This document shows positions 2,401 to 45,764 of a stretch of DNA of 64,000 bases, piece after piece. Under the pieces are notes generated by a model, which was given only the letters and a program-made list of their open reading frames with translations, was not told where the DNA came from and made no database searches. Location: assembly GCA_052327205.1 (NCBI GenBank), contig CM126207.1, positions 239,568,001-239,632,000 of the forward strand, read 5' to 3'. Source of the DNA: Somniosus microcephalus. Lineage: Eukaryota. Each line of letters begins with the position of its first letter. Positions within the stretch are counted from its first letter, which is position 1. Both the position numbers and the translations under genes were made by a program.

Positions 2401-4333
2401 CTCGGGAGCATTGAATCAGAATTGAGAGCAAACGGGGACATGGCACCTTTAAATATACCGGCAACAAACGCGTCATCAGGTGACATCACCAGACCCGTAC
2501 CTTGTAATTGGGCCGGGTAACACGCAGGGTGGGCTTAACAAGCCCAATTAACGTAAAATCCTTTTCACAGCGTGGCTGGAGTTGGGAGCGGGACCCGCCA
2601 AAGACCTCTCCCGCCACGATCCCGCCTCCGATGGCAAAATCATGGCCAGGGTGTTACTAACAAGATGACACTGGGAAAAAAATTGCATATACCCCCCATG
2701 TGTCTTACATTTCTTACGTTTTATCATTAAGTCCTGATTTTCATGAACTATCTTCTATTCACATTTTCTCCTCTTTGTATCCTCCCAAAACAGGCAAACA
2801 GCCAGGGACATGTCAATGAGCTTCACTAATGCTGTTATGTATCAGCTGTCGAGGATGCTGCAAAAGAACCTTGCCAATGTTTTTCTACATCCCATCCGCA
2901 ATTTTTCTATGCGATGTTAAGGAACATGTCAGTTGATTTACATAGCTGCATTTCAAACTACAGATGGATTCAAAAGCAGTTGTTTTCAACATTCTTACTG
3001 AATTTACTTTGTTGTGAATAACCATGGCCAAGGATCCTCTTAATGAAAATCAGGATAACACATTCCTCATGTAGGATTCAGATAGAGCCCATTTGAGAAT
3101 TTAGTGGCATATATTTTATGTTAATGCACACAGCGGCAGATTTGTATGTTAAAAATGCAATGTTTCTTCCCTGCGAATAGAGGCTTTTCCCGAGTGTATC
3201 TTATTTTATATTGAAATTGTGACATTACTAAGCTCTTGTGCCAGTTACTTTCTTACAGGGATCTCAGAGACGAAAGAGAAGCCTACAACTAATAAGCATT
3301 TTTCTCATTAAATTTGATCTGTGTATGTAACTTGGCCTGAAAGTTATTAAAGATACATGGATGAATTCTATATATTTTGCCTGTGCTGCCTTACATGTAG
3401 TGCACAGTGTAAATTTTCATGAAGTTATGTGTTTGTGCAAAATCAGAATGCACTGTGATCAGAAATAACATTGGGTGGATTCATTTCAGAGATAATATCT
3501 GGATGTGGGGGGAAATATGCATTGATGATGAGGTGAGTACTTACCTAGTAAAATGGAGAAACATGATAAAAGTGTTAAGGAGTTAACGATCCTGGAGTTC
3601 CCTAGATTAGATCATGTCATTGGGTTTGCAATCTATATTACTGTTATCAACAACTCCCTATGGATGATAATATGGCCTATGGCTTCCCAAGCATTGTACC
3701 AACTGTACACAAAGGTCAAAAAGATCCCATAACACGGTTGATGTGGCAGAAAAGTGCACCATTGTTCAGTGCCTGTTGCAAGAGGGCCACAGTGAAATTT
3801 GAGCATTTTGTTCCTGGGTGGCCCTGACCATCCACATGATACCTCAACTGAACTGTTGTATCTCAGCAGCTCGATTTTGATCAGGCACTGTCGTCCTGCA
3901 CCCTGCTTCAACAGAAAAAGGTCCGCTTCCCCTGTAAATTCCAACAGCCACAGGAAATCCCAGCCCTGTAAACTCGGTGCTCTCCCAGCAGGTCATGAGC
4001 AATGTGCTGGGAGCAATATTTAAATATTCTAAAGAGCTTTATTGTGTGAAGCCAGCTCATCTGTGTGCAGCAGACTTTAGCTGTTGACCTTTATCTTAGC
4101 CAGGCTTTCAATTGATGCCATAAAAGCAGTACTTCCAGTTCAGGGCAGCCCAGTGGTACTGCATATTGGAGTTACGCAAGTGAGCCATGTTGCTTTGGGG
4201 AAACAGGTAGTGGTAGCAAAGCATTGCCCCATATGGACAGCAGAAGTAGGGAAATTGGAGCAATATCCATCCCAGATCATATTCCCACATTGGTTGCTTC
4301 AAAGCAGCATTGGTGATTCCTGGCAGTAGGTTG

Positions 4334-4547
4334 TGACATAATAAAACTCACTACACACTTGGTTTGAGCATAATCAAATTGTTTCAGAACATGGAGGTCT
4401 AGTTGTACTTCACTAGTTCCTGTCTTACAAAATGTCCCTGCAAGCTGGGCCCACACCCGAGTATTTATACTCCTTGGACGGCGCCACCAGCTGGCCGTCC
4501 AATGTTATTTCATGAGTAGTTTCTTTATGATGATGAGATTTATAACA
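4334..4547 (-). repeat. 3' LTR of Gypsy element 1
   Basis: TG...CA ends; shares gtatttatactccttggacggcgccaccagctggccg (37 bp) exactly with 9021-9057; polypurine tract adjacent on the - strand. Confidence 0.75.
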
Positions 4548-4588
4548 TTCTTCCTGTCTAAAAGATTTAGAAGTCCGACGACTTCCTC

Positions 4589-7500
4589 CTAACGGATTAG
4601 GTGGACCACAAACAGCCGCAGTCTTTTAGATCTTTGTTTATGGCTGGAAGGCACGTCTCCCCGGACTGTGTCTTGGTCCCTGGGCCGCTTGATCCGTACC
4701 GGTGGATCAACAGGGCCCGTGTTGCCCTGATCGACCCGAGGGAGGCTGGGGAGATCGTGACTCCGGGTGCGGGTCCCCACAGGCGCAGAGCTGGCTTCAT
4801 CCTGTTTGATAGCCGGGGATTGACCAGCGTCCTGGCATCGGGTGGCCATCCCACGGGGAGCACTCGGCTCCCCGAGTAGATCTGGTGGGGCAGCCGGCAG
4901 ATCTCTCGATGTCCCAGGTAGGGCGTCATCTTCAAGGGAGCGCAGAGTGTCAGCATCATCACCGTGGGTCCCTCTATCAGTTGGGTCCGTGGGACCGGCT
5001 GGATAGGAAGCCAGGTCCCAGAGCAAAACGCTGGACTCCCGGTCATGAGGGTACCGCACGTGCGCGTACGTGGGATTAACATCCGTGAGTTCTACCTCGT
5101 CGACGAGGGGATCGTTTTTAGAAGATCGGACGAATCTTCGGAGCAGCACGGGGCCGGGCGCTGCCAACCATGATGGTAGGGACGTCCCATGAGTGGAGCG
5201 ACGCTGGAACCTGAAGAATCGCTCGTGAGGTGTGACATTGGTGGACGTAGAAAGAAGAGACCTGATGGAATGCAACACGTCAGGGAGCATAGTTTCCCAC
5301 TGCTGGTCTGGTAGGTTGCGTGACCTTAGTGCAAGACGAACAGCGTTCCAAATGATAACGTTGTATCTCTCAACCTGTCCGTTACCTATGGGATGATACG
5401 GTGTCGTTTTACTTGTGGCGATTCCCCATTGGGAAAGATAACTTTGAGTTCGCTTGACATGAAGGAGGGACCCCGATCAGAGTGGATGAAATTGGCCGTA
5501 CCGCAAAGGGAAAAGACTTGATCAAGGCATTTGATCACTGTGGAAGTAAGCATATTGGGACAGGGGAAAGCAAAGGGAAAGCGTGAATATTCGTCCACCA
5601 TAGTAAGTAAGTAGGTGTTTTGCGTTGAGGAAGGCAGTGGCCCTTTAAAGTCAATGCTGAGCCGCTGCATAGCATGTATAAGCGAGCCATCCGATGGACG
5701 GAAGAATTGCAGTTTTAATTCCACACAAATTCTACAGGAGGAGCATGTTCTTTTCACATCTTCTGTAGAAAATGGGAGATTTTTAAATCGCACAAAGTGC
5801 AACATACAGATAACGCCAGGATGGCATAAGTCAGTATGAAGATCTGCAAGAGTCGAAGTTGACATAGAAGAGCAGAATGCCCATGTGAGGGTATCTGGGG
5901 CCACATTCTCTTTGCCGGGTTGATAATGTATGGTGTATCCAAAGGCGGCCAATTCCATCCTCCAGAGTTGTATTTTGTTATTCTTGATCTTAGTGCGTTT
6001 CCGGTTATCAAGCATAAAGGCCACGGAGCGCTGATCAGTTATAAGTGTGAAATGGCGATGAGCGAGAAAATGACTCGATTTACGTACAGCTTCGATGATG
6101 GCCGTAGCCTCCTTCTCGACAGGAGGATAATGGAGCTCGCTACCTTGCAAAGTTCTGGACAGAAATGCAACGGGTCAACCACCTTGATTCAAGGTAGCAG
6201 AGATCGCCACATCCGATGCATCGTACTCAACCACGAAAGGAAGATTTTCATCAATGGAACGAAGCGTGGCTTTTTCCAGTTGTCGCTTGAGGAGGTTGAA
6301 AGCTGAAATAGTCAGTGCCTCCAACGGAAATGACTTTGCATGAAGCAGAGGCTGGATCTTGTTGGAGAAGTGGGGTATCCACTTCGCATAATAGGCGAAC
6401 ATGCCGAGTGCCCGACGAAGAGAGACGAGATTCGTAGGGGGAGGGAGCTCCTGAAGCGGACGAAGTCACTCCGGATCCAGTTTGATGACACTGTTGCCCA
6501 CCCAGTAGCCAAGGATGCTGACTGATGGTACTGATTTCACAGATTTGGACTCATTTAAGGTTAAGTTGCGACGACGGAGAACGTCAAAAAATTTCTGGAG
6601 GTTGGCATCATGCTCCTTCTGGTCATGACCAGCAATGGTGATATTATCCAGTTACAGATAAGTGTCCGTTAAGTTCTCCTGTTTGACTAGGCTATCCATT
6701 GCCCGTTGAAAGACGGCCACCCCATTGGTGACCCCAAATGGAAGGCGAGAAAACTGATAAAGCCGACCATTGGCCTCAAAGGCCGTATACTTTTTGTCAG
6801 AGTTCTTTAACGGTACTTGATGGTATGCGCTCTTTAAATCAAAAGTTGAAAATACCTTATAGTTGGCAAGATTATTGACCATGTCATCGATATGTGGTAG
6901 TGGGTAGGCATCCAGGTCAGTATACTGGTTAATAGTTTGCGAGTAATCGATGCAAAGATGTTTCTTGTGTTGCTTCAGAGGATTTTTAACAACGACGATT
7001 TGAGCCCGCCAGGAAGATGAACATGGCTCAATGATACCGTCAGCTAGAAGGCGAGAGATTTCTGCCTCGATAAAGGATCGATCATCTTGGCTGAAACGTC
7101 GTGATTTAGTGACTATGGGCTTACATCGGGGGGAAAGATTTGCAAACAAGGAGGGCTCATCGAGTGAAGCCGCCGAAAGTGCACAAAACGGTACTTTGGA
7201 AATAGTAAGCTCCGGCTTTGACCCTCCAAACTCGAAAGTGAGTCTTTTGTGTTGTTTCTGGAAATCCTGTCCCAGGAGCACATCACTGCATAGGTTTTTG
7301 AACACCCTGAGCCGGGTGGAGAAATAAGTGTGGCCATTTAGAATAAGGTCGACAAGACAAAAGCCGGAAGAATTGGTGGTCAGTGTCGTCAGAGCCATTG
7401 CAATTTCCCTGTCCAAGGGGTAAGTACGCAGTTTTAACTTACTGACAGCCCACTCACTAATTAAGCTGTCAGAGCTGCATGAGTCGATTCGTGCACTCAA

Positions 7501-8778
7501 AATGTGTCCATTTACCGAAACCTTCGTGGCTGCATGGGACAGACTTTGGGGGAAAACAGCTGTGATGGGAGGAGGGGCAGTTTTACACTTGACAGCTGTA
7601 ACCTTGGTAGTGCTTCTTCGGGGGGGGGGGAGCAGTTTTATAGATTGCAGCTGTAACCTTAGTAGTGGCTCTTGGGGGAGGAGCAGTTTTATAGATAGTA
7701 GCTGCAAAACTAACTGGGGCTCTCGACCGGTATACCTTAGAAAAGTGGCCTTTCTTACCAACAGAGGCTCTTGACTGGCATACCTTAGAAAAGTGAACTT
7801 TCTTACTGCAATGATTGCAGGTTGCGTTACGAGCAGGACAACATTTCCTATAGTGGAATGCACCTCCACAGAAGAAACACTTCCTTCCAGATTGCCAAGA
7901 TGCCGCTAGGGCAGGGCCGTCATCTGTGAAGGCTTCTAGGGTAGGGTTGTCATCCGCTAGGTTAGAGTCATCATCAGTGAGGGCTTCCGCCCAAGACCTA
8001 TCGAAGGAGTCATTAAAAGTGATAGCAGCAGCCCGTGCACGTGGTAAAAGATAGGTATCTGCATTCCTCTTTGCTAAGCTCAGGGAACATGCCTGGTCGT
8101 AGGCAGCCTGTAACTTGAGGGTATTATTCTCCAACAGACGCTGGCGTATGAAGGGAGACGTAATTCCGTTAATAAAAGAATTAGCTCCTTCTGGTACTGC
8201 TCAGCTGTAACAGCTTTAAGATTACAATCCTTGCTGAGCCTGCGAAGCTTTTGAAGGAATTCGTCAAGCAATTTCCCGGGTTGTTGTCGAGTAGTGGCCA
8301 GCAGATGCCAAGCAAAAATTTCGTTTGGGGCCTTAACATATAGTCGCTGTAATATTAGGATAGCGGAGTCATAGTCTACACAGTCTTCTGTAGTGTCCGT
8401 GTGTAGATAAAGACACTGAAGACAGGAGTTGGTTCATAGGTATTTACTAAGCAAGTCTGGGGGGGGGGGGTTCTAAAGGATATACACAATACACAGGCTT
8501 ATATAGCCCAAGTGGCAATTACCGGCATTACGCACACCTGGGGCTCTTAAAGGCACATACACCACAATTGCTCTTAAAGGCACATACACCACATCTTCGA
8601 TATAGTCAAACACATAAGGAGATACATAATTGGCAAGTATCTCTAATTTATCAGAAACATTCTCCCCACACACCCTGAGGAAGTTGCTGAAGATATGATA
8701 CCAGTGTTTCCATATCTTAGCAGTTGTAGGTGAATTCGGGTCCAGGCCAAGACGGGCAGGTCTGAGTCGTTTGTCCAT
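4589..8778 (-). pseudogene. Gypsy gag-pol, frameshifted and interrupted
   Basis: Fragments: gag MDKRLRPARLGLDPNSP (8778); CFFCGGAFHYRKCC and CNHCSKKVHFSKVC knuckles; protease IDSCSSDS; RT (YPLPHIDDM, FSTFDLKSAYHQV, LPFGVTNG, YL-DN split by a frameshift near 6650); RNase H (YDASDVAI, EKEATAI); integrase (SIDFKGPL, HSDRGPSF). Confidence 0.9.
8389..8593. mobile_element. Solo LTR inserted in the gag of Gypsy element 1
   Basis: TGTAGTG...CACCACA ends with 5-bp TSD TCTTC (8384-8388, 8594-8598). Removing it rejoins gag (YVFDYIED/CVDYDSAI). Its right end resembles the 40806-41006 LTR. Confidence 0.85.
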
Positions 8779-8881
8779 GATGGATTGATTGCTACGTCGG
8801 AGTTCCCTTCTACAGTTGAAGTCGTAGCTGGCTGTTCCCGAAATTACTCAGAGCGTGGAGCTGATACACAGTTGATTAAAT

Positions 8882-9090
8882 TGATGTAAAAAGACTACTG
8901 AGCTCTTGGTTTGAGTATAAAACAAGGCTTTAATCAACTGTTTCAAAACCATGAGATTTCTAGTTACATCACTAGTTCCTGGTTATAGAAACATCCTGAG
9001 CAATCTGCGCCCACGCCCGGGTATTTATACTCCTTGGACGGCGCCACCAGCTGGCCGCCCAGTGTTACTTCATGAGTCATGAAAAGATTC
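8882..9090 (-). repeat. 5' LTR of Gypsy element 1 (outer end probably truncated by CR1)
   Basis: Starts tgatgtaa versus tgacataa in the other LTR (both derivable from tgacgtaa by CpG decay); TATA-like gtataaatac on - at 9021-9030. Confidence 0.75.
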
Positions 9091-10945
9091 ATGACAGTCA
9101 GCATGGATTTGTTAAGGGAAGGTCGTGTCTGAGAAACTTGCTTGAATTTTTTGAGGAGGTAACAAGGAGGGTAGATGAGGGTAGTGCATTTGATGTAGTG
9201 TAATTGGACTTTAGCAAGGCTTTTGATAAGGTTCCACATGGCAGACTGGTCACGAAGTTAAAAGCCCATGGGATCCAGGGCAAAGTGTCAAGTTGGATTC
9301 AAAACTGGCTCGGAGGCAGGAAGCAGAGGGTAATGGTTGATGGGTATTTTTGTGACTGGAAGGCTGTTCCCAGTGGGGTTCCGCAGGGCTCAGTACTAGG
9401 TCCCTTGCTTTTTGTGGTATATATCAATGATCTTGACTTGAATATAGGGGGTATGATTAAGAAGTTTGCAGATGATACTAAAATCGGCTGTGTGGTTGAT
9501 ACTGAAGAAGGAAGCTGTAGACTACAGGAAAATATCAATAAATTGGTCAGGTGGGCAGAACAGTGGCAAATGGAATTGAATCCGGAGAAGTGTGAGGTAA
9601 TGCATTTGGGCAGGGCTAACAAGGAAAGGGAATACACATTAAATGGTAGTGTTCTGGACTTATTACATGCAGATAGCACCCTCTAGTGGTAGTTAATGTA
9701 TAGCAGTGTTAGTATACTCGAGAGGTCATTTGACCTAGTTCCTGTCTCAACCCGGAAGTAGTTTTTCAGAAAGAACTTACTGAGTAATGGAGAATCCCTC
9801 ATGTGAGATCCTCAATCCAGTGCCATCTCATCTCATATGCAAGGCCAGATGCAATGTCTGTGAGTATCTTTGTTTGTTAACATGATAGCAACTTTGTCAG
9901 TGTAGTATTTGACAATACTTTGTTTATAAGAAGTTAGTAGTTGTTAGCTACAGAAGTCTAGCTCAAGTGCCATTTAGTTATACAATTAATCTATTCTATT
10001 GTTATAAATATGTTTATATCTTATGTAACATCTAATGTATAGTACTTAGTTCTATGTACCAAACATACTTTGTCTTTGTTTACAGTTTCACAAATTTGTT
10101 GAAGTAAAGCTTCAAAACAGCAAACCGGCTTCTCGAGGAATTATTTGAATAAGTGTTTAGCTTGCTGGATAACTAGATAGGAGCACGTCTAGCGAGACCA
10201 GTACAGGTAGGACACTGAATAGTGTAGAGGAACAAAGGGACCTTGGAGTGCATGTCCACAGGTCCCTGAAGGTAGCAGGCCAGGTAGCTAAGGTGGTTAA
10301 GGCGGCATACGGAATGCTTGCCTTTATTAGCCATGGCATAGAATACAAGAGCAGGGGGGTTATGCTTCAACTGTATAAAACACCAGTTAGGCCTCAGCTA
10401 GAGCACTGTGTGCAGTTCTGGTCCCCACATTACAGGAAAGGTGTGATTGCACTAGAGAGGATACAGATGAGATTTACTAGGATGTTGCCGGGAGTAGAGC
10501 ATCTTAGCTATGAGGAAAGACTGGATAGGCTGGGTTTGTTTTCCTTGGAACAGAGGAGGCTGAGGGGAGACCTTATTGAGGTGTATAAAATTATGAAGGG
10601 CCTAGATAAAGTGGATAGAAGGGACCTATTTCCCTTAGGAGAGGGGTCAAAAACCAGGGGGCACAGATTTAAAGTAATTGGTGGAATGTTTAGAGGGGAT
10701 TTGAGGGGAAATGTCTTCCCCCCCAGAGGGCTGTGGGTGTCTGTGGAGTTTGGAACTCACTGCCTGAAAGGGTGGTAGAGGCAGAAACCCTAACCACATT
10801 TAAAAAGTACTTGGATGTGCACTTGGGATGCTGTAACCTGCAGGGCTACGGACCAACAGCTGGGAAGTCGGATTAGGCTGGATAGCTCTTTGTTGGCTTG
10901 CGCGGACGCAATGGGCTGAAATGGCCTCAACTTTCTATGATTCTA
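9091..10945 (+). mobile_element. 5'-truncated CR1 LINE (RT and 3' UTR), interrupted by a solo LTR
   Basis: SQHGFVKGRSCL, DFSKAFDKVPH, GVPQGSVLGP, KFADDTK, VRPQLEHCVQFWSP, RRLRGDLIEVYK; tail ending in ttctatgattctat. Confidence 0.93.
9650..10205. mobile_element. Solo LTR (556 bp) inserted in CR1
   Basis: TGTTCTGG...CCAGTACA termini with TSD GGTAG (9645-9649, 10206-10210). The sister CR1 copy near 63705 shows the empty site (aaatggtaggacactgag). Confidence 0.9.
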
Positions 10946-13559: not shown

Positions 13560-13751
13560 TCTTGAAATTTTCATCCTGCTACCATCCGTTTAAAGTCAGA
13601 AGCTCTAATCTGGTGGAGCAGGTAAGTAGGACTATTTTCCTTTTCGTCCCAAAGAGGCATCAGGATAGGCCTCATACAAAAATAGGTCAGCATAGGGGAA
13701 GGGGGGTGAGATGGGATGGATTGTCGTGCTGCACCTCAGGAAAATACCAGG
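13560..13751 (-). mobile_element. Possible very old L1/Tx1-like LINE remnant, continuing at about 21047-21560 beyond the BEL insertion
   Basis: Reads HPIS..FPYADLFLY (cf. RT motif HKISLYADD.LLY); weaker RT-like traces on the other side of the BEL element. Heavily decayed. Confidence 0.3.
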
Positions 13752-14184
13752 TGTAGTGGCGCTTCTTAGTTTCCAAACAGGCAGCCACTGAGCTGTGGGG
13801 CTGTTAACAACGAGTAGACGCGTGTCGAAATAAAACGTTCCCAAACGTAGCTTTGTCTTTTAAACTGTTTACTATAACACTTCACAAACGGAATTACAAA
13901 GCAAACACGTATAAACGAACACGGTCAAAAACTGTATTGCTCCAAACCTCACAACTTCTGCCTCCTTCAGCCACGTGGAGTTTAAACTGTAAAATGGCTG
14001 CGTACCATGTGTGGCTTAAGGACTGTACCATTGTGGCGAGAATGAAGGGGGTGTCTCGGACTATACTACTGGAGCAAGAAAATGGGGGGTTTCTTAATAC
14101 AATAAGTCAATCAGGTAAATTAACTGTATTATGCTATTTAACCAATATTTTAAAGTATTTTCTTAAGCTTTTATGGCTCTTACA
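13752..14184 (-). repeat. 3' LTR of BEL/Pao element
   Basis: Direct repeat of 20609-21041. Confidence 0.97.
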
Positions 14185-14305
14185 TTCCGGCCCCTAATTG
14201 ACTAGGCACATGAAGCGTCTCAATTACTCAAACATTAAGAGTCATAAACTAATGAGTTCAACATATTTACAATATAAGTGTCCACTTTTTTCGTTCAGGA
14301 GCTTT

Positions 14306-17300
14306 TCACGCTGCTTCTTGTAGCAGGCAGAGCTTGGTGATCGGTCTTTCCAGGGTACTGGTCTTGGTTTGCAAACAAACGCGACGAACGACGCCTCTGG
14401 AGTCTGGCATGGTCTTAATTATTTTTCCCATCAACCAAGAATTTCTAGGGGCTGAATCATCCACGATTAAGACAGTGTCTCCGACAATGAAGTTCCTCTT
14501 TATTTTGGACCATTTTTGACGCTCCTGTAGCAGAGGTAAGTATTCTCTTGTCTATCTGGTCCAGAAAAGGTCTGACATATACTGAACTTGCCTCCACTTC
14601 CGACGGGCATACAGATCTTCCTTTTTGAAGACTCCCGGGGGCATGGCTGGCTGTGTTTTCAACAACAACAGGTGGTTCGGAGTCAGGGCTTCCAGGTCGT
14701 TGGGATCAGCTGATGTCTTAGTTATCGGTCGGTCATTAATGATGGCTTCGACCTCGCACAGAACGGTTTGGAGTCCCTCGTCGTCGAGCACTTGCTGCTT
14801 CAGTACAGAACTGAGTAGTTTTCTTACGGTGCGTATCTGTCTTTCCCAGACACCTCCATGGTGGGATGCAGCCGGAGGATTGAAGATCCACTTAATTCCT
14901 GTTTGCATCATGGCTTCCTGTATTTTAAGCCGATTCCAACCTTCAATAGCTTCCCGTAGTTCTCTCTCCGCTCCGACGAAATTAGTGCCATTATCAGAAC
15001 GCATAATGGACACCTGACCTCTTCTACAGACAAAGCGCCGCAAGGCGTTAATACAGGAATCAGTGTCAAGCGTGTGTGCCACCTCAATATGAACTGCTCT
15101 GATGGTCAAACAAGTGAAAAGCACACCATATCTCTTGACAAGGCTCCGTCCTCGCTTTACCTCGAAAGGCCCGAAATAGTCCACCCCTGCGTTTGTAAAT
15201 GGGGGCTTGTCTGGTAACAAACGGTCTTCAGGCAGGTCTGCCATTTTCTGCTCCCCAGCTCTAGCGTGTAACCGTCTGCAAACAATGCATTCAGAGAGTA
15301 TTTTTCTTATTACAGAATTAGCTCCTGGAATCCAGTATCTTTGTCTTAGCTTCGCAAGCACGTGATTCCTCCCACTGTGTCCAATACTCTGGTGTATATG
15401 CTGAAGAATGAGAGTAGCAACCCGGAGGTCCTTAGAAAGGATAGCAGGATGCTTGGCCTCCTCTGGCATAGCAGATTTGTTTAGTCTCCCTCCCACCCTC
15501 AGTACTCCATCTTGCAGTGTAGGATCCAGCTTGTAGATATGACTACCTTCCTTGATTGGAGTATTTCGCTGTAAAGCTTCGATTTCTTCTGGGTATCTTT
15601 GTCTTTGACTGAAGCAAACTATCTCCATCTCAGCCTTGGCCAAATCCTCCACGGTCAATGAATTCTTACCCAATGTGGTCTTGTGCTGATGCATATACTG
15701 CTGTCGAAGCATTCTCTGCTTATCGGGGTTACTTTCAGACTGACTGATAGTGGCTCGGTACTCTTTTCTCTTACCGCTCAGGTGTAGCAGCAACTCTTTC
15801 AACCTTAGAAACCATGCAACTGCTTTCCTCAACTGGTGCCATCCTGAGAAATGGTTAACAAGCTTGTTCACTGTGTCAAAGTTCTCTTTCGTAGTTATGA
15901 GATTTACTGTGACTGATCTCTTGACTTCGACGTCGTCTTCAGCAATCTGACTTGGCATATCTGGTCTTTCTGGCCATGATCTCTCTGTTTCCAGCAGATA
16001 ACTTGGGCCTTGTATCCAAGTTTCACTCCTCATGAAGTTTTCAGCCTTCAATCCCCGTGAGGCTTGATCTGCTGGGTTTAATGAGGTGTTTACATACCTC
16101 CATTGAGATGGTTGTGTAGCTTCTCTAATGGATGAGATTCTGTTTGCTACGAAGGTCTTGAAGCGTATCTTCTCATTCTCTATATACTTCAGCACCGTCG
16201 TGCTATCCGTCCAGAAGACAGATTCTTCTAGTGGGAGCTGTAACTCTTTCCGCATCGCCTGGTCAACTTTAACTGCAACAACCGCTGCCGTCAACTCCAG
16301 TCTCGGGATGGTGATCTGCTTCAGCGGAGCCACCCTGGATTTCCCCATGAGGAAGGCACAATGTTTCTGGCCCTGTTGATTTGTCAGCAAGAGGTAAGCA
16401 GCCGTGCCATAGCCGTCCTCACTGGCGTCCGAGAAATGATGTAGTTGAGCCGTCTTTGTAACTCCAAAACTCACGGGCTTGATGCATCTACTGACGTTGA
16501 AGCTAGAGTGTTGTTGCAAATCTGTCAACCATCTGAGCCATCTCTGAGCTTGACCTTCTGGGATATCTTCATCCCATCCTCTCTTGTCTCTACACAGCTC
16601 TCATAGCATCAGCTTCACCGGCAGAATGAGTGGTGCCAGGAATCCAAGAGGGTCGTAGATGGAACTGACCACGGAGAGAATCCCTCGTCTTGTGGATGGT
16701 CTTTCGTTCACCATTATCCTGAAGTTGAACGTGTCTGACTCAATGCACCATTGTACACCAAGAGCTCTCTCGATAGGAAGGACATCGTGGCTCAGGTCCA
16801 GATCTTTGACTTCAGTGGCTCTTTCCTTTTCTGGGATAGAAGCTAGAACTGCTCTGCTGTTGCTTAGCCACTTAGTCAGATGGAATCCTCCATTCGAACA
16901 CAGAGTTCTAAGGTCTCTTGACAGTGCGATGGCATCGTCTTCTGTTGACACGGACTTCAGACAGTCATCGACATAAAAGTTTCTGAAGATTGTCTCCACA
17001 GCCTCTGATGGTGCTTTGCCTTTGCCATCTTCTGCAGTTTTTCTGAGAGCGTAGCTTGCACAGCTGGGAGATGATGTGGCTCCGAACAAGTGTACGGCCA
17101 TTCTACATTCCACCATCGCTTGACTAACGTCGCCATCTGGCCACCAAAGGAAACACAGAAGATCAGCATCTTCATCAGGGATTCTGACTTGGTAGAACAT
17201 TGATTCTATGTCTGCCATCATGGCAACGAGCTCTTGTCTAAACCTGGTCAAGACGCCAATGAGGGTATTAGTAAGATCAGGACCTTGAAGCAGCTGGTCA

Positions 17301-20300
17301 TTCAGTGAAGTTCCTCTGAATGAGGCGGCGCAGTCAAACACTACACAGATCTTTTTCTTCTTTGGGTGATACATGCCGTGATGAGGAATGTACCAGACCC
17401 TTCCATCGTCTCTGTTCAACTGTTCCTCGGGCACTTTTACAGCATAGCCTTTCGCTATGATGTTTCTCATGAAGCCTTTGTAGTCTTCGTGAAAGTCGGG
17501 GTTCTTGTTCAGCTTTCTCTTTAGACTGATGGAGCGTTGCTCTGCTATGCAGCGATTGTTCGGCATCTTCGCGGTCTGTCTTCTCAGTGGCAAACTAATG
17601 TGATAGTGGCCATCAATGAACTGTGTAGACCTTGTCATCAAATCCATGAACTGATGGTCTTCTTGTGACATCTCTGTCTTTTCCTCACAGCTGCGTTCTG
17701 AAAAGTCTGCGTTGAACTGCTGTATCAACAGCTCTTCAATGCTTGCGATAGAGATGCGATTAACTGTGACATTTTGTCGTTCCTCCTTGTTCGACTTGTT
17801 GCCATCATCTCTCCTTACCGGTCCATTGACTACCCATCCAAGGGCTGTCCTGACGGCGTAGGGTCCGTCATCCTTGCTGTTTATCACCTGCCGTGGCTCC
17901 ATAGTTTTGTAGGCATTGGTTCCAATTAATAGGCCAATTTCTGCTTCAATGTATGGGAGACGCACCTTTTCTAGGTAAGGCCATCTATCCACATCCTTCT
18001 GCAGGGCTAAGTTCCCTATTCTAACAGGAATCTCCCTCTGTGTGAAAACATTAGGCAGGTCTATGAAGTCCTTCTCTTCAAGTCCACACACTTCTAAGTC
18101 TGACAGGATATAACTTTGCATTGACTTCTCATGACCCATGGTGCGTAATAGGATTTCTGTTCTTCTGCCTCTAACGTTCAGCTGTCGCATGAGTGATTCT
18201 GTGCAGAACGTTGCTGAACTACCTGGATCCATGAAGGCATAAGTCTCCACAAGCTTCTCGCTCCTCTTAGACTTGATCTTTACTGGTACGATGGCAAGAA
18301 TACAATCACTGTCACCGGCCCCAGTGAGTCCACAAGTCTCTGGTTCTAGCGACACCAGAGCACTTGAAACAACCTTCTCGTCGGTATTGTTTTCTTCACT
18401 CTTCTTAGAGACTTGTTCTTCTTTATGGATATGCAGCAGACTGGGATGTTTCCGAGTGCACTCTCTGCATGTTGTTCTTTGCTTACAGTTTCTACTCAGG
18501 TGCCCCTGAGAGAGACATCCAAAACATAGGCCGTTGTACTTCAGGAATTCGATTCTGTCCTTATGTGGCTGTGCTTTGATGTCGCTGCAGAAATCCAATG
18601 TATGATTCTTCTGGCAGAATAAGCATGGCTTCTGAAAGGCATTAGCAGGCGTCACTGTGCTGCTCTTTTTGGGAGATGAGTTCTGGGGCCTTTATTCCTC
18701 GGCCTGAGTGACGATAGTTGCAAAGTTGCTTCCCCTGGAACCACCTTTCCTGAGAGTCTTTGATTCAACAGGCTTGGCTTTCACTCTTCCATCGGTGGTC
18801 GGGCTGGCGTCCTGGATGTTTCCAAACAATGGGTCCCTAGCAATTTTAGCCTGTTTGTCTATGAAATTCACTAAGTCTGCAAACCTGGCTCTACTTTTCC
18901 GTCTCTCCATTATCTCAAAGGCTGTTCTTCTCCATTGTTCTCTCATCCTGTAAGGAAGCTTAGAGATGATGATTCTCATAGTCGTAGGATTGTCCATCTC
19001 TTCCATGAATTCAACATCCTCCATGGTGTTGCGACATCCTATGAGGAAAAGAACATATGCGTTCAATGCCTCTCCATCCTCCGATCTGATCTGTGGCCAC
19101 TTGGTAGCCTTTTCAATATACGCAGTGGCTATCTTCAGCTCGTTACCATAGTGCTCCTGCAGCAACTTCCTGGCTTCTATGTATCCCCGGTCCGGTCTCA
19201 TGTGTTCACAGCTTCTGACCAGGTCTTGTGGTTTACCACTGGTGTACTGTCCCAGGTAGTACAACTTATCACTGCTGCTCTCTGTCTTGGAGTCAATGGC
19301 TTGTTCAAAGGATCTGATGAAGGGCTTATACTTGAGTGGGTCGCCTTGGAACACTGGTATGTCTCTTTGAGGGAGTCGAAACAGATTCTGTTGTTTTACA
19401 AGCATCTCTGTAATTTCGTTCTGACGTTGCATCACTCGGTATAGGCTTCTCCCTGTGTCTTCAGGCCTCTGGTGGTCATCAGCAGGGTCTAGTCTAGACC
19501 GTCTGATGTCTGGGGTAGCATCACGTGCTCCTGTTAGTGGAGAGGCCACTCTTCCACGCTGTAATGCCAGGGGATTGCCTTCGGACTCTCTTGTAACTCT
19601 TGAAGGTGCCCTGGATCCAACTCTATGTGACAACATTGACTGGCAGTATTCGCTCCCGCCGTCCCGTGAGCCTTCATAATCTTCATACGCACTCAACCTG
19701 GCGTCTGAGACCGCGATAGCTGTTTTTATCTCCAGCTGTTCTTTCTTTGCCTGCACCTGGGCCTGCAGTTGGGCCTGCACTTGGGCCTGCAGTTGGGCCT
19801 CTTGGACCTGCAGTTGGGCCTCTTCCCGTTCAAGAGCTTGCTTCTCCGCTAAAGATGCTGCGCGCGCCATCAACGCCGCCCGTTCAACCTCCTCTCTCAT
19901 GCGTCGCGACGAGCTTGTGGTAGAAACGACTGACCTGCGTCCAGAAACAGAGCTACCTTCTTTTCGATTTTTGCTCGGCCTGGCGGAAGTCTCTGAAATG
20001 CTATCGTCTGGTCCGACTTCATCGTCAACTTTATCTTTCTCTGCTGTATCAGCATCTTGACGAATCTTTAACATCCACTGTTCTGTGGCCTTGATATAGT
20101 CCTTAATGCTGGTTGATTTAAGATCAAACCAGTTGTGCTGATCAGCGTTTCCCTCTTCTTCAGACAGAAGTGCTAATACATCTTCATTGAGTACATTAAA
20201 TTCTTCATGCAGCTTGGAGAAATCGTAATACATTATGTCTTCAGCTTTCTTAATATTAGCATTATCTTCCATGAGACGATCAATTATCTTCATTTTTCCA

Positions 20301-20446
20301 GTTATCTGAGCTAATTTAGCCTTCCTTGCACCTATGCTTCTATGTAACTTCTCTTCCATTGCCTTTGGGGGGAGCTTTATTTCCCTCTTTTGGCCAGCAA
20401 TCCTTCTGGCTGGGGGAAGCTCCTGGCTCCGTAAGGCCTCGGCCAT
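14306..20446 (-). pseudogene. BEL/Pao gag-pol polyprotein: one reading frame with three premature stops (18692, 16601, 14552)
   Basis: The three ORFs (20446-18692, 18655-16601, 16528-14552) and the tail to 14306 are in the same frame. Motifs: FQGDPLKY gag; three Cys/His knuckles (CLFCQKNHTLDFC, CFGCLSQGHLSRNC, CRECTRKHPSLLH); protease FMDPGSSATF; RT YIPHH, LFGATSSP, FYVDD; Pao RNase H HHFSDASEDGYG, TIPRLEL; integrase GVDYFGP, SDNGTNF, GGVWER. Confidence 0.95.
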
Positions 20447-20608
20447 TTTACCCGCAGCTCTTATTTAGCTTCTCAATAGAATGAACAAAGCAAGTAACAG
20501 TCACTGTACCTTCGCTTTCTTATATTGTCGTCTGGCTCCGTGACCATTCATGTATACGTTCGCCGACGATTCCGTCCTTTCCTTCTTAGGGAGCAAGTTT
20601 TTGACTAT

Positions 20609-21041
20609 TGTAGTGGCGCTTCTTAGTTTCCAAACAGGCAGCCACTGAGCTGTGGGGCTGTTAACAACGAGTAGACGCGTGTCGAAATAAAACGTTCCCA
20701 AACGTAGCTTTGTCTTTTAAACTGTTTACTATAACACTTCACAAACGGAATTACAAAGCAAACACGTATAAACGAACACGGTCAAAAACTGTATTGCTCC
20801 AAACCTCACAACTTCTGCCTCCTTCAGCCACGTGGAGTTTAAACTGTAAAATGGCTGCGTACCATGTGTGGCTTAAGGACTGTACCATTGTGGCGAGAAT
20901 GAAGGGGGTGTCTCGGACTATACTACTGGAGCAAGAAAATAGGGGGTTTCTTAATACAATAAGTCAATCAGGTAAATTAACTGTATTATGCTATTTAACC
21001 AATATTTTAAAGTATTTTCTTAAGCTTTTATGGCTCTTACA
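20609..21041 (-). repeat. 5' LTR of BEL/Pao element
   Basis: Direct repeat of 13752-14184. Confidence 0.97.
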
Positions 21042-21879
21042 CCAGGGATTGACTCACGAGGGGTTATACAGAAAATGAATGGGAAAATACAGCCTGATCC
21101 GATCGGGTTTCTCCAGTTATGTCAGTGCTGTCAGTGTTGGGATAAGAGAAATTTCTCAACCATTTTAACCCAGTGTGAAATTCAGACATTTCCACCACAC
21201 TGTTAGCACAGACCTGCAGATCTCTGGGATGAATAACGGGGTAAATCTCTACAAGTAGAAGACCTGGGTGTGGTGAAGATCCGTCATGTCACATTTTGAA
21301 AAGCTATCTCACTGGTGCAGAGAGCTGTCCACTTATCATGTCCTTCGTAGTCTTGGGGCCTCTAAAGGTACTTGATCCTCTCTTCAGTTGATTCTTTTTT
21401 TACCTGAAGTATTTTGTGGCCTTTACTAGGCCCTTATTGGAACCTATGATTGGTATACGGGGCGGAATTTCCCAGGGGTGGCCCAGGAACTCTCCCAGGC
21501 ATACTTCCTTGATATAGGATTGCAGATGGAAGATCCTCTCTCTTCCATCCCCCTTTCCCCACCCCAACTGGAATTTCCAGGTCTTCTCTCCACAGGATGG
21601 AATCGCAGTAGTCCTGGGTTCCACCCCATTTTTCTAGCCCCACTCCTCCCCGGCACTTATTCTGGAGATGCATCATCACTCACCCTGCTATCAGAGTGAA
21701 GCAGTAGTGGTAGCTCGATCTCAAACTGGTTATTCCTGCTGACATTTAAGCATGAGCATTCATTGTTTTGACAATAGCATGTCACAAATACTGCAGAAGA
21801 GTTTAGCAGTCCACATTCCCATGGACTATGTGAAAAGTTCTCCTCAACCAACAGTAGATTAACTGGTTCTTCATATCAT

Positions 21880-36295: not shown

Positions 36296-36652
36296 TGTGG
36301 AGGAGCCACAAGAGACTCAGTGTACTTTAGTATAATCCCCTTAATTGTATTATAGTGCAGCCGGGGACTGCACCTTTAAATTGATTGTTACCTTTACAGT
36401 GTGTGTTTGCCTTTATCCTGCGTGGCGACGTCATGACGCTGATCACGTGACCGCCAGTGGTGCGAAGAACGTGGGGACGTCATGACATCAGCTTAGAGAG
36501 CTTTCCAGCAGTCTTCGACTACCTGGCATCTTGAACGAACGTGTTTTGATTTCCTCCTTGTAACATCCAGCAAACTTCGTTGTTATTAAATTCCAGCCTT
36601 TTAATCCGTCGAGTTGAGCTGAATTATTTAGTTAGGAACCTCCATTCCTACA
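36296..36652 (+). repeat. 5' LTR (357 bp) of CsRN1-like element
   Basis: TGTGGAGG...TTCCTACA; near-identical to the rejoined 3' LTR. Confidence 0.95.
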
Positions 36653-36653
36653 T

Positions 36654-36665
36654 TGGTGACCCCGA
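36654..36665 (+). promoter_or_regulatory. Primer binding site, tRNA-Trp type
   Basis: TGGTGACCCCGA one base after the 5' LTR; complementary to the tRNA-Trp 3' end, as typical of the CsRN1 clade. Confidence 0.85.
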
Positions 36666-36697
36666 TCTCGTCGAACAAACTTCGAAGAGAATTCAAC

Positions 36698-37345
36698 ATG
36701 AGCACAAATGCCATCGCCCTCAAATTGCCTCAGTTCTGGGAGCAGCAACCAGAAGCTTGGTTCCTACAGACGGAAGCACAGTTTCACCTGCGGGAGATCG
36801 TAGCGGATTCGACCCGTTATTTTTACGTGGTCTCCGCTCTCGACAGCGCCACGGCCTCGAGGGTCGTCAGCCTACTGAGCAGTCCACCAGACGAGGGCAA
36901 GTATGAGGCTCTCAAAGCTCGTTTACTGCAAATATTTGGCCTTAACAAATCAGAGCGCGCACGCAGGCTCATTACCATGCCAGGCATCGGGGACTCAAAG
37001 CCTTCGGAATTAATGAGCCAAATGCTCACCCTACTTGGTTCGGAAGACCAATGTTTTTTATTCCGAGAACATTTCCTCTGCCAGCTACCTGACGCGGTGC
37101 AGACAGCCTTGGCCAGCTCTGAGATCACTGACTGTGTTAAGCTCGCGGCAGAGGCAGACAAAATTTTTGCAGACTCACAGCAGTGCTGTACAGCCACGAG
37201 GCGTCCTTCTCCTGCGTGTGCGAAGCCCAGCCCTCCTCCAGCAGGCTGGTGCACGTACCACGCCCGTTTGGGCGCCAAAGCTCGATGCTGCAAGCCTCCC
37301 TGCAGTTTCTCCCCCCAAAAAATCCTTAGCAAGCCATTGACCTGA
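36698..37345 (+). CDS. Gag (CsRN1-type)
   Basis: ATG at 36698; [34 protein letters not shown] and a terminal [19 protein letters not shown] motif; a C/A-run possible frameshift site near 37311-37322. Confidence 0.85.
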
Positions 37346-37349
37346 AAAG

Positions 37350-40300
37350 CACGTTCAATTTACCATGGCGGTCGGTTGAACGGGGAAATTACTTTATGTT
37401 ACGGATTCCACAACGGGGAGGCGATTCCTCTGCGACACTGGGTCCCAGTGCAGCATTTTGCCAGCTTCCAGGCTGGATCTACAATCCGGCGGCCGCAGCC
37501 CTGCACTCGAGGCAGCCAATGGCGCGGCGATTCGCACTTTTGGGAAACGGACGGTTACCGTTACTTTCGGCGGTCAGCAGTTCCTCTGGCAATTTATCAC
37601 TGCCAGTGTCACAGGCCATACTAGGAGCCGACTTCTTTTGTGCAAATGGTTTTCTAGTCGACGTCAAAATCTGCCGCCTTATTCACGCGTCCACTTACCA
37701 TGCGGTGCCCTGCCACCGCAGCACCGCCATGTCCTGGTCGGTCGCCTGGGCGGTACCAGTTCAACATGGGTTTACACGCCTACTCAGCGATTTTCCAGAG
37801 CTCACCCGGCCTACCTTCTCAGTAGCAGTCACGAAACATGGTGTGGCACACCATATCACCACGAATGGATCACCGGTTTATGCCCGGGCGCGCAGGTTAG
37901 AACCCAGCAAACTCGCGGCGGCTAAAGCCGAATTCCAAACAATGGAGCGCCTCGGGATCGTCCGACGCTCCGACAGTCCTTGGTCCTCTCCACTGCATAT
38001 CGTCCCCAAACCAGGTGGAGGGTGGCGGCCTTGCGGTGATTACAGACGACTAAACGATGCCACGACTCCTGACAGGTATCCCATACTTCATATCCAGGAT
38101 TTCTCAGCACATTTGGCTGGAAACTCTTCAAAGGTGGATCTCGTCCGCGGGTATCACCAGGTTCCGGTGCACCCACAAGATGTTCCCAAGACGGCAGTCA
38201 TCACACCTTTTGGCCTTTTCAAATTTCTCAGAATGCCTTTCGGGTTAAAAAATGCAGCGCAGGCTTTCCAGCGGCTCATGGACTCTGTTTTACGGGATTT
38301 GCCTTTCCTTTTCGTATATCTGGACGATATACTCGTCGCTAGCAAGAACCCCAAGGAACACTTGTTACATCTACGCCAGCTCTTCACTCGGTTAAGCCAA
38401 CATGGCCTCATTGTCAACCCGGCCAAATGCCAATTCGGTCTCACCAGCATCGATTTCCTGGGGCACAGGATAACATCAGACGGCGCCGTTCCACTAGCCA
38501 CCAAGGTCGAGGCTGTTACAGCTTTTCCACGTCCCCTCGCTGTTAAGTCCTTGCAGGAATTCCTGGGGATGGTTAATTTTTACCATCGTTTTGTCCCCAA
38601 GGCAGCGCAGTTGATGCAACCGCTGTATGAAGCACTGAAAGGGAAATCTGGCAAAGACCTCATCAACTGGACTCCCCAGATGGACCAGGCCTTCCTAGAT
38701 ACCAAAGCAGCACTGGCAGATGCAACCATGCTGGCACACCCTATTCCAGGTGCAACCATCGCTCTCACGACGGATGCTTCGGACTACGCCATTGGAGCGG
38801 TGCAGGAGCAGTGGGTAGACAGGACTTGGCAGCCGCTGGCCTTTTTCAGCCGCCAACTACGCAAGAACGAACGCAAGTACAGCACGTTCGATAGGGAGTT
38901 GCTCGCCCTGTTTTTGGCTATTCGACATTTTCGCTTTCTGCTAGAAGGACGCCCGTTCACCGCGTTTGTGGACCACAAACCACTCACGTTTGCCATGGCC
39001 AAAACGTCTGAAGCTTGGTCAGCGCGGCAACAGCGCCACCTCACCTTCATTTCGGAATTCACCACCGATCTATGACACGTCTCGGGCAAGGACAATCTCG
39101 TGGCCGATTGCCTCTCCCGCGCTCCTGTCCTGGCAGTTAACCTGGGCGTCGATTTCGCTGGCTTAGCGGAAGAGCAGTTGGCTGACCACGCCTTCCAGTT
39201 GGCAAGTCGCTGTCGTTCAGTTCCACTCAGCAGGAACCACCCTTTTGTGTGACATGTCCATGGGAGTGCCTCGTCCCATAGTGCCGGTCGAGTGGCGCAA
39301 GAAAGTCTTTCGGGCAATACACGGGTTGTCGCACCCAGGGATTCGAGCTTCGCAACGTCTCATGTCCCGCAAGTTCGTGTGGAAGGGCATGCACTTAGAT
39401 GTCCGAGATTGGACAAACAATTGTATTGATTGTCAAAAAGCGAAAGTCAACCGGCATGTTAAAGCCCCTTTGGCTGAGTTTCCAGTGCCAGAACGACGGT
39501 TTGACCACGTGCACGTGGATCTAGTGGGTCCTCTCCCCGGTTCACGGGGTTTCACGCATCTCCTCACAATAGTGGACCGCACCACCAGGTGGCCAGAGGC
39601 GATTCTGTTGGTCGTTACCACTACAGCTGATATTGCCAGGGCATTCCTGTCGTCGTGGGTGGCTCGCTTCGGTGTCCCATCCGACATATCATCGGACCGA
39701 GGCCCACAATTCACTTCCGAATTATGGAATGCCGTTGCACATGGCTTAGGTACCAAGCTACACCGTACCACCGCCTACCATCCGCAGGCGAATGGCCTGT
39801 GCGAAAGGTTCCATCGGTCGCTTAAGGCATCTCTTCGTGCCAGCCTGTGCGGATCCAACTGGGTAGACAGATTGCCTTGGGTGATGCTGGGGCTAAGGAC
39901 GGCTCCCAAGGAAGACCTTCAGTCTTCATCAGCTGAGTTAGTTTACGGGCAAACCTTGAGGGTCCCTGGTGACTTCCTGCCTCCGCATACAGAACCGTGG
40001 TCTGCAACTCAGCAACTTATCCAGCATCGCGAGGCAGCCAAGAACATCCTGCCCATTCTGACCTCGCATCATGGCTGACAGAGGCCTCACGTTCCTGCGG
40101 ACCTCATGTCCGCCGATTATGTCTTCATCAGGCACGACACGCACAGAGACCCACTTAAACCACCATACGCCGGCCCATTTCGTGTCATATCTGCCGGTGA
40201 GAAATATTTCACCGTCGACGTAGGCGGCAGACCGGACACCATCTCCATCGACCGTCTGAAGGCCGCTCACCTCGATCGCACTGAAACAATAGTGCCTGCC

Positions 40301-40537
40301 CAGCCACCTCACCGAGGACGACCGCCGTTGCACGCTGATTCATCATTACAACAGCCAGCCATTGAACCGCCTACAGATGCCTCACCATCGTTTTCGCAGT
40401 CAGACACTGCGTTCGCCGCACCTGACACGCCGCAACAACCACAGCCAGGCTCCATGCTTTCTCCCGACGTTCCACTTCCACCGCCTGAGGGTCGTCGACG
40501 CTCGGAGAGAACCATCAAGTTTGATACTGGCCATTAA
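37350..40537 (+). pseudogene. Pol (protease, RT, RNase H, integrase) with frameshifts and stops
   Basis: FLCDTG protease; [24 protein letters not shown]; TTDASD RNase H; HGLSHPG...CIDC zinc finger; HVDLVGPL, SDRGPQF, NGLCERFH integrase; PYAGPF GPY/F module. Spread over several frames. Confidence 0.92.
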
Positions 40538-41093
40538 CGGGGATTCTGGGGGGGCGCCTGTGGAGGAGCCACAAGAGACTCAGTGTACTTTAGTATAATC
40601 CCGTTAATTGTATTATAGTGCAGCTGGGGACTGCACCTTTAAACTGATTGTTACCTTTACAGTGTGTGTTTGCCTTTATCCTGCGTGGTGACGTCATGAC
40701 GACGATCACGTGACCGCCAGTGGCGCGAAGAACGTGGGGACGTCATGACGTCAGCTTAGAGAACCTTCCAGTAGTCTTCGACTACCTGGCATCTTGAACG
40801 AACGTTGTTAGATCCGTGGTTCAGTGGATAAATAATTACACGGATGCTGTACATAAACAAATAACAGGTCTTCACTGGAGGAGGGTAATCTCTAGACTGG
40901 GGTACAGAGGCAGGCGCACAGCTTATATACCGGTGTGGTCACTGCCGGTACTACAGTATACAGGAGCTGTAAAAAGTAGTTCTGACTTAAAGGCACATAC
41001 ACTACAATTCCTCCCTTTTTAGATTAATAATACCCCCTTAATATTCAAATAACAATTACATTTTTACATGTACATTCAATAACAAAAGTCCAT

Positions 41094-44000: not shown

Positions 44001-45170
44001 ATATGTCACTTTCACCCTTATTTTTCCTTTGGGGTAGACTTTTTGCCCCGTATACGCCTTCAAGACAATCTCTGTAGCTTTCAAGGGTATGTGTGAAAAT
44101 AGCCGCTTGTAGTCTCTTTGATTTATGACTGTTAGAGCTGACCCTGTGTCCAATTCCATTTCCACTTGGACTCCGTCTATCTTGAGTGTAACCCAGATAG
44201 TCTGGTGATCCTCCATTTCGGTTACATTATGTAGTTTCAGACAACCCAGCTCCTTGCTTCCGGAGTCTGTGTCACTTTTTTGTTCGTCTGCACCACTGTC
44301 CATCACCTGGTGTACCTTTTTGTACTTCTCCTGTGGAGATTTCTTACTGTTGGTTTTCTTCCCAGACCTGCAGACTCTTGCTATGTGTCCTGCTTTCCCA
44401 CACTGTCTGCACACTTGGTCCTTGAACCAACAATCTTTCTGGTCATGTGTTGTTCTGCCGCAGCGATAGCACTTCCCTGTTCCATAGGTCATTTCGTTGG
44501 TGCCATATTCTTGCGGTCTCCGTTGTATCTCTGCAGCGCCCCTTGCGGCTGCTTCGTGTGATACTGCCATACTGAAAGCTTTGTCCAGCGTAAGGTCCTT
44601 TTCTGATAGAAGCCGTTTCTGGGTTCCTTCACTTTGTAGCCCACACACAAACTTGTCCCTTAACGTGTCTGCTAGTCCCGCTCCAAACTGGCAGTATTTC
44701 GATAGCTTGCGCAGTTCCGTTAGGTACTCAGCATTGCTTTCGTCTTTGTGTTGGTTCCTTTTATGGAACTTAAATCGTTCTGCTATCAGCAGCGGTGTGG
44801 GGTTTAAGTGGTCCTGTAGGATTTCTACTATGCTTTCAAAATTCTTGTTTACTGGCTTCTCTGGGGTTATTAGATTTCGCAGTAACCCATAAGTTTTTGC
44901 ACCCATGGAATTTAACAGAACCAGTGCTTTATTAGCATCTGGCACTTCATTCGCCCTGCAGTACACCTTAATACGTTCCACATATGTCGCCCAATCTTCG
45001 ACTTCATTGTCGAACGTAGAGATACTGCCACTCTTCGGCATCCTTGGTTGTGCGTTAACTATCACCAATGGCGCCTCCCGCGCTTCCCCTTCTTCTCCGC
45101 AGCACAAAATGGCGTCTCCTGCGCTTTCCTTCCTTCCCGCGCTCGCCCGTCTTCTCCGCTGCGGCTTCAC
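41094..45170 (-). pseudogene. Gag-pol single frame with one premature stop (TAG at 42999-43001)
   Basis: ORFs 45170-42999 and 42977-41094 are in frame (LGLVN*YHKFLPNLST). Two CCHC knuckles, LDTGS protease, YLDD RT, ACDASPYG RNase H, HIDFAGPF / SDNGPQF / NGLAERFV integrase. The true start may be the ATG of MPKSGS. Confidence 0.95.
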
Positions 45171-45320
45171 AAAATGGCGTCTCCCGCGCTCTTCCTCCTT
45201 CTCCGCGGCTCAATGGCGCCTCCCGCGCTCTCCCTGCTTCTCCGCGGCTCAATGGCGTCTCCCGTGCTCTCCCTGCTTCTCCACGGCTCAATGGCTTCTC
45301 CCCTTGCTTCGCCCCGCGGA
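45067..45320. repeat. About 39-bp tandem repeats in the 5' leader of the Mag-like element
   Basis: caatggc-led units start at 45211, 45250 and 45289 (the first reads caatggcgcctcccgcgctctccctgcttctccgcggct), with degenerate copies from 45067. Confidence 0.85.
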
Positions 45321-45754
45321 CCCTGATCAGCCTATGATCCCTGGCTGTGCTCTGCGCGTTCTTCTCTTGATATTTGTCGACGCCGCTCAGCCTAGAACCC
45401 GGCTGTTTCTTACCCTCTCTGTCTCCGGTTTGCAGTAGTTTTCCTCGACGCCGCTCGGTGATCAACCCCCGGCTGCGCCCTGCTCTCTTCACCCTCTTTC
45501 TTACCCCGTCGACGCTGCCCAGCTCTCTCTCTCTGCTGTCGGTCGGCTCCAGCCGCCGCTGCTCGGGAAGGGTCTGCTCTGGACCTGTCGTCGGTCTCTT
45601 ACTGCTCGTTGTGGCTGGGGAACCAAGCCCGGCTCTCCACAGTCTTCCCAGCGAAGTTGGATCTCTGCCTGACTGCTGGGCGGTTGCTCGCGGTCGACGC
45701 CCGTGTTCCTGGACTCGATATTTTTTTAATGTTGCAGGTAGATTCGCATCAACA

Positions 45755-45764
45755 CTCGTCGCCA
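45755..45764 (-). promoter_or_regulatory. Primer binding site, tRNA-Ser type
   Basis: TGGCGACGAG on - one base inside the 5' LTR boundary. Confidence 0.8.

Follow-up and report, generated by a model that had tools for sequence, protein, structure and literature searches.

[quoted passage not shown] In the accessible parts of two further papers, self-priming is proposed for Tj1 (PMC4600332) and is predicted for Tcn1 and for the TAR lineage of copia elements from at least 10 bp of complementarity starting 0-5 nt after the 5' LTR (PMC6317226). The ICTV description of BEL/Pao elements, in its available portion, specifies a single gag-pol with protease, reverse transcriptase (RT), RNase H plus integrase, LTRs and a polypurine tract, and assigns to them an 18-nt PBS for tRNA-Arg or tRNA-Gly and priming by host tRNA, within a replication cycle that is called poorly understood (PMC8742986). 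Proof of self-priming has so far been obtained only outside BEL/Pao, in another group of retrotransposons. For the Cer7-type BEL elements of C. elegans, an element-encoded primer-like RNA has been proposed, with a tRNA-like sequence in the internal region. A literature search with a scope outside which lay Repbase notes and subscription papers found no paper on self-priming of BEL elements, and the accessible portions of PMC3118150 and PMC554778 do not mention the PBS.

The window (the whole stretch of 64,000 nucleotides of DNA that was analysed) contains a BEL/Pao element whose family very probably primes minus-strand DNA synthesis with its own RNA. Like Tf1 and Tf2 of Schizosaccharomyces pombe, Tj1, Tf1/sushi and Tcn1, as these are described in the available sources, the element has no tRNA site and has a PBS complementary to 10-11 nt of its own LTR; unlike the Tf1/sushi and Tcn1 groups, which are Ty3/gypsy chromoviruses, it has Pao-type domains and belongs to a different superfamily, outside the Tf1/sushi group. 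It follows the same sequence rule for predicted self-priming as the TAR lineage of plant Ty1/copia elements (Houba, Osr-1; PMC6317226, accessible part), but differs from that lineage in superfamily and host kingdom. Whereas Tf1 pairs nt 1-11, the paired stretch of the BEL element apparently lies about 20 nt inside the RNA and is accompanied by a second helix, and the paired stretch of three BEL relatives, unlike that of Tf1, forms only after predicted splicing. RNase H cleavage has been demonstrated for Tf1, whereas in the BEL element it is predicted by analogy. Like the Cer7-type elements, the BEL element is proposed to supply its own primer, but its complement lies only in the LTR and has no RNA-family match.

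Anatomy of the BEL/Pao element and its family

The element runs from 21041 to 13752 on the minus strand, to which all of its features given here belong, and lies between two copies of a 5-bp target-site duplication, CCTGG (left copy 21042..21046, right copy 13747..13751). The 5' LTR (20609..21041; 433 bp, TG...CA) has one mismatch to the 3' LTR (13752..14184), which carries a second copy of the primer-like segment (13933-13924) and is directly adjoined by a polypurine tract (14185..14195). A single gag-pol frame (14306..20446) encodes zinc knuckles, DUF1759, RT, the Pao peptidase/RNase H region and integrase; in the window copy it is broken by three in-frame stops (18692-18694, 16601-16603 and 14552-14554), and other copies of the family keep open frames of 2040-2079 aa. 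Domain matches in the element are to PF05380 (Peptidase_A17, E 2e-35), PF03564 (DUF1759, E 2e-8), RVT_1, Integrase_H2C2 and rve. Membership of BEL/Pao was judged on protein features, with a PBS for tRNA-Arg or tRNA-Gly treated as a described trait only. The element is assigned to BEL/Pao because Gag zinc knuckles, DUF1759, RT, the Pao peptidase family and integrase occur in a single frame, with integrase after RT in a Pao-type pol; the structural traits of the group (TG...CA LTRs, target duplication and polypurine tract) are also present. The element resembles the ICTV Belpaoviridae in the domain set of its single gag-pol, its LTRs and its polypurine tract, but unlike them it has no tRNA-Arg or tRNA-Gly site.

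The BEL family is young and large: the 40 copies listed for it are 99-100% alike, and at least 1279 of its LTR-leader junctions in the genome match one pattern. All 19 of the BEL stretches sampled from the genome (16 of them with a 5' junction) are subfamilies of the window family, and a profile search with PF05585 for other BEL families in the genome gave no match. The nearest named proteins are those of bony fishes (about 52-62% identity), and in an RT-RNase H tree that carried no named BEL/Pao superfamily references the element falls among fish-type relatives. Viral and prokaryote collections contained no relatives of the element, the one match being a weak one to Gypsy. At 61.72-61.74 Mb of G000 C19, copies of the BEL family form a tandem array that repeats every 6853 bp, the length of one LTR plus the internal part.

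Predicted pairing of the primer site with the LTR

The original prediction described a BEL/Pao element on the minus strand in which the LTR is followed by ATA and ten further nucleotides (20605-20596) with no TGG, and in which the exact complement of those ten nucleotides lies in the LTR at 20790-20781; both observations are confirmed on the sequence. The spacer of 3 nt between the LTR end and the primer site (20606..20608) is ATA in the window copy only, all 27 of the other readable copies (29 fetched) having TTA. The PBS core is GTCAAAAACT (20596..20605; 10 nt), and the first 25 nt after the LTR contain neither TGG nor the described 18-nt PBS for tRNA-Arg or tRNA-Gly. The complementary segment (20781..20790), within the element, is confined to the two LTRs, and the 3' end of a self-primer would be at 20781. 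This is the arrangement of the published self-priming rule (no tRNA PBS, and an LTR complement of at least 10 nt starting 0-5 nt after the LTR). For a single element the complement is only modestly significant (shuffle P about 0.02): when the LTR was shuffled by dinucleotides, a complementary 10-mer starting 0-5 nt after the LTR arose in 1.7% of 20000 trials and, in a second run, in 1.3% of 1500.

Across a 4-nt bulge, the pairing can be extended by an outer helix between GGAGCA on the LTR side (20795..20800) and TGCTCC on the PBS side (20590..20595), with which the predicted duplex energy is -20.2 kcal/mol versus -10.3 kcal/mol without it. The LTR side of the outer helix is largely kept in subfamilies and is present in a distant family (L059); base 20595 on the PBS side varies between A, T and C among copies. 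The ten bases of the PBS are unaltered in 94 of the 100 junctions listed, and the eleventh is variable. The complementary segment stands 175-183 nt before the LTR end in 16 subfamily copies, whose LTRs are 80-95% alike to those of the window element, and few parts of the LTR are as well conserved (0.99 identity versus 0.67 twenty bases upstream, in 12 subfamily copies). A poly(A)-signal-like AGTAAA (20725..20730) is downstream of the complementary segment, which is therefore likely to be in R. Part of the primer-site arm recurs in a stretch of U3 (20928-20936, minus strand); in place of the arm, this stretch could pair with the outer-helix segment, which would give the RNA another possible fold within its 3' end. 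A scan of the element against Rfam gave no match at E <= 1, and thus no tRNA-like internal primer was found. The absence of TGG counts in favour of self-priming, as does the need for a primer with five U in a row, a run that transcripts of RNA polymerase III are not known to contain internally.

Relatives were obtained from a metagenome scan, which yielded 33 related loci. Ten of these loci, belonging to five families at 41-55% amino-acid identity (L059; L066; L060-62; L069-72 less the cut ones; L074/76), have a readable LTR-leader junction, the LTR ends of the relatives having been picked by eye; the remaining loci, of which a part was read base by base, are mostly short contigs. A 10-11-nt complement in the LTR, in different letters, is present in all six families examined (the window family and the five from the metagenomes). 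The complement is contiguous in L059 (11 nt), which also retains the outer helix, and in L066 (10 nt), and an 11-nt complement in L060, L070 and L074 appears only after removal of a GT..AG intron in the LTR. The spliced joins are predicted from GT..AG sites, with the same donor and acceptor in 10 of 10 contigs checked from these three families. The predicted intron-spanning primer-like stretches are L060:1032-1144, L070:1895-2092 and L074:5858-6174. None of the six families has TGG; the primer sites all begin with GT, the LTR segments all end with AC, and the helix always adjoins the LTR end with 0 or 3 nt between them. When contiguous or spliced matches are allowed, the shuffle P is 0.033 for the window element and 0.002, 0.0007, 0.0027, 0.0027 and 0.014 for the other five families, each of which thus has P <= 0.014. 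In the RT-RNase H tree, the contiguous and spliced forms each fall in two separate groups, which implies more than one gain or loss of the LTR intron. A splice-made primer was also sought in the window element and rejected, the best join being of only 5 nt and no splice joint being listed among the RNA reads. Where the spacer is 3 nt long (window element, L059 and L060), the polypurine tract ends in AA; where it is 0 nt (L066, L070 and L074), the tract ends in CCA. The two ends of the cDNA seem to vary together.

Within the window family, 26 copies with a variant PBS were examined, several of them duplicates of one event, and one with a rearranged LTR was set aside. A matching change in the copy's own LTR was present in 1 of the 25 informative copies, which is the level of chance; such a result is compatible with decay after insertion, and no support is drawn from it. 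The covariation that the original prediction called for among related BEL families was thus found between families and was not found within the family. The one copy with a matched change in primer site and LTR segment is L039 (= L058). In copies L119-L131, which represent several subfamilies, the tenth base of the primer site has become G in 9 of 13 variants.

Putative genomic fossils of priming and the probable 5' end of the RNA

A primer that is the element's own RNA could be copied in plus-strand synthesis, and therefore rare copies are expected in which the LTR end and spacer are followed by inverted LTR sequence. Tf1 cDNA with a DNA copy of the primer at its 3' end is reported in the available text of PMC11042837. 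A search pattern consisting of the LTR end, the spacer, the PBS and two further LTR-complementary bases, which fixes the start register by design, had 10 matches in the genome versus none in the reversed control. The 10 matches represent 8 loci, because L134/L135 are one locus and L136/L137 are a duplication. The inverted stretches of own LTR at these loci are 12, 13-14, 30, 32, about 51, 87 and (at two loci) at least 255 nt long; they reach 30 nt or more at six of the eight loci and only 12-14 nt at two. Unrelated DNA begins after 30 nt of inverted LTR in L133, and the normal leader resumes after 32 nt in L136/L137; the ends of both fossils correspond to 20810-20812, about 31 nt downstream of a TATA-like TTTAAA (20838..20843) that is lost in some subfamilies. 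In L134/L135, a minus-sense copy of U5-R runs only as far as LTR base 262, which adjoins the predicted cut, before it snaps back (one event, with 3-nt ambiguity). The inverted runs of L134/L135 and L140 continue through U3 into the 3' internal region. The fossils of 51, 87 and at least 255 nt need an extra template jump, and all of the fossils could be obtained by fold-back of DNA. Aberrant copies may offer a general way to read the identity of a primer from genome assemblies.

Transcription was examined in two RNA runs (X7 and X8) from one related species and one study, with mixed copies and uncontrolled strand, of which 24-31% of each was read. The depth of RNA in the sense-like orientation drops at 20800, from 20.5 to 4.65 in X7 and from 24.4 to 8.74 in X8, and 12 molecules end at 20799-20801 in X7, at a depth of 20. 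Among the reads listed from the two runs there is no pile-up at 20790 and no splice joint. Reads of the other orientation form, in both runs, a sharp edge of molecule ends at 20942-20943 (in X8, 90 of about 190). This edge could be the 3' end of an antisense RNA or a hot spot of priming, or else a start site should the library be forward-stranded. Either reading of the strand suggests that the RNA starts upstream of 20790, though ordinary RNA-seq does not map caps. The RNA reads and the fossils point to a 5' end of the RNA 10-22 nt upstream of the paired stretch. The cap region, which would be the 5' end of the primer, may be placed at 20810..20813, where the two fossils end and from which the step in RNA depth is about 10 nt downstream; given self-priming, a cap near 20810 is probable. 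When the RNA begins at 20810 or 20800, PBS and LTR are predicted to pair with a probability of 0.95-0.97 in all three transcript lengths tried; the predicted probability is 0.03-0.94 for starts at 20812-20816 and 0.02-0.07 for a start near 20845.

Proposed priming pathway, alternatives and neighbouring elements

In the proposed pathway, the transcript would start near 20810, and the 5' part of the RNA would fold onto the primer site through helices of 10 bp and 5-6 bp. A cut after 20781 would free a 3'-OH, on a primer of about 30 nt compared with the first 10-11 nt in Tf1; RT would extend the primer across the 3-nt spacer and U5-R, as far as the cut, before a transfer to the 3' repeat. The analogy with Tf1 suggests the element's own RNase H as the nuclease, an assignment that is probably correct if the element self-primes. 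A broader proposal, towards which the balance of judgement tips slightly, is that an entire clade within BEL/Pao, from fish-type to splice-dependent invertebrate-type elements, dispenses with tRNA priming and uses as primer a capped leader of about 30 nt from its own RNA, built with or without host splicing, and that rare genomic copies keep the joint between primer and cDNA and so map both ends of the primer.

The alternatives overlap partly with self-priming from the 5' part of the RNA. The original prediction had the RNA start at 20790 and its first 10 nt act as primer, as Tf1 itself uses its first 11 nt (PMC7175516, accessible part); CAGT is initiator-like, the base preceding the LTR segment is unable to pair, and a short RNA from 20790 folds as required (predicted pairing 0.88-0.97). 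This geometry is nevertheless quite improbable: predicted pairing from 20790 is only 0.11 in the longest transcript tried, the fossils extend past 10 nt, two of them ending at 20810-20812, the outer helix kept across families requires the RNA to include 20800-20796, the X7 molecules mostly end at the step at 20799-20801 with no pile-up listed at 20790, and the segment of three relatives spans a splice joint and so needs an upstream exon. Self-priming itself gains from the six covarying families and the primer-like fossils, and it is the specific geometry of the original prediction that lacks support. A primer with the same cut base might instead derive from the segment's second copy, in the genomic RNA's 3' repeat, or from a short LTR transcript acting in trans. 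Both RNA ends are likely to contain the segment, since the poly(A)-like signal is downstream of it, the inverted runs of L134/L135 and L140 reach through U3 to the 3' internal region, and solo and 3' LTRs look transcribed, with loose RNA ends at 20609; but two fossils end at 30-32 nt, the long inversions could also arise by a jump after copying of the primer, and in the spliced relatives the intron would survive only if the 3' repeat of the template were unspliced, which makes such a source rather unlikely.

Imperfect inverted repeats can be perfected by template switching. The pairing may accordingly serve a structural role in packaging, a translation switch or strand transfer, with some cellular RNA or fragment as the true primer and with the fossils formed by fold-back of DNA on an inverted repeat during reverse transcription or host replication. 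This is unlikely, even though the primer itself is not directly observed and mirror changes within the family are at the level of chance: with six site sequences in six families, each would need a matching cellular RNA, the helix always adjoins the LTR end (0 or 3 nt) and the segment always ends with AC, in L134/L135 the minus-sense copy goes no further than base 262, and nothing in the element matches Rfam at E <= 1. A chance complement in an A/T-rich LTR might be entertained for the window element alone (P 0.013-0.033), but is extremely unlikely given five further families with a complement, each at P <= 0.014, and a segment that stays at 0.99 identity when the sequence twenty bases upstream is at 0.67 in the 12 subfamily copies.

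If the BEL family primes with its own RNA, self-priming reaches a third superfamily of LTR retrotransposons, in a family with at least 1279 junctions in one vertebrate-type genome, and a primer other than the first 11 nt of the RNA would then be possible and could depend on splicing. Self-primed elements would escape control through tRNA supply or PBS-directed tRNA fragments, and annotation tools that seek a tRNA site would call them defective.

Two other LTR elements in the window were predicted to have ordinary tRNA PBSs, and indeed their TGG sites match the 3' ends of tRNA-Trp(CCA) over 12 nt and tRNA-Ser(GCU) over 10 nt. These are adjacent Gypsy-type elements in opposite orientation (36296-46080), which share a 118-nt LTR-like piece (36535-36652 and 45963-46080). 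The geometry that had been noted in a further Gypsy-type element (about 4330-9095, minus strand) is also present, as a 13-nt complement (8941-8929 / 8880-8868) with no TGG, intact in 16 of 20 copies. The two LTRs of this element are only about 82% alike, and the 3' LTR is without the segment. Among the families listed for its 120 best homologues and for its own last frames there is no chromodomain, and therefore it may be a candidate self-primer that lies outside the chromoviruses. In this element a TATA box precedes the paired stretch by 88 nt, so that here, too, the stretch would not be at the first bases of the RNA. The suggested convergence between the BEL and Gypsy-type elements holds as sequence geometry only. 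A DDE_Tnp_4 (Harbinger-like) transposase frame of 388 codons lies at 60376-61542 on the minus strand of the window.
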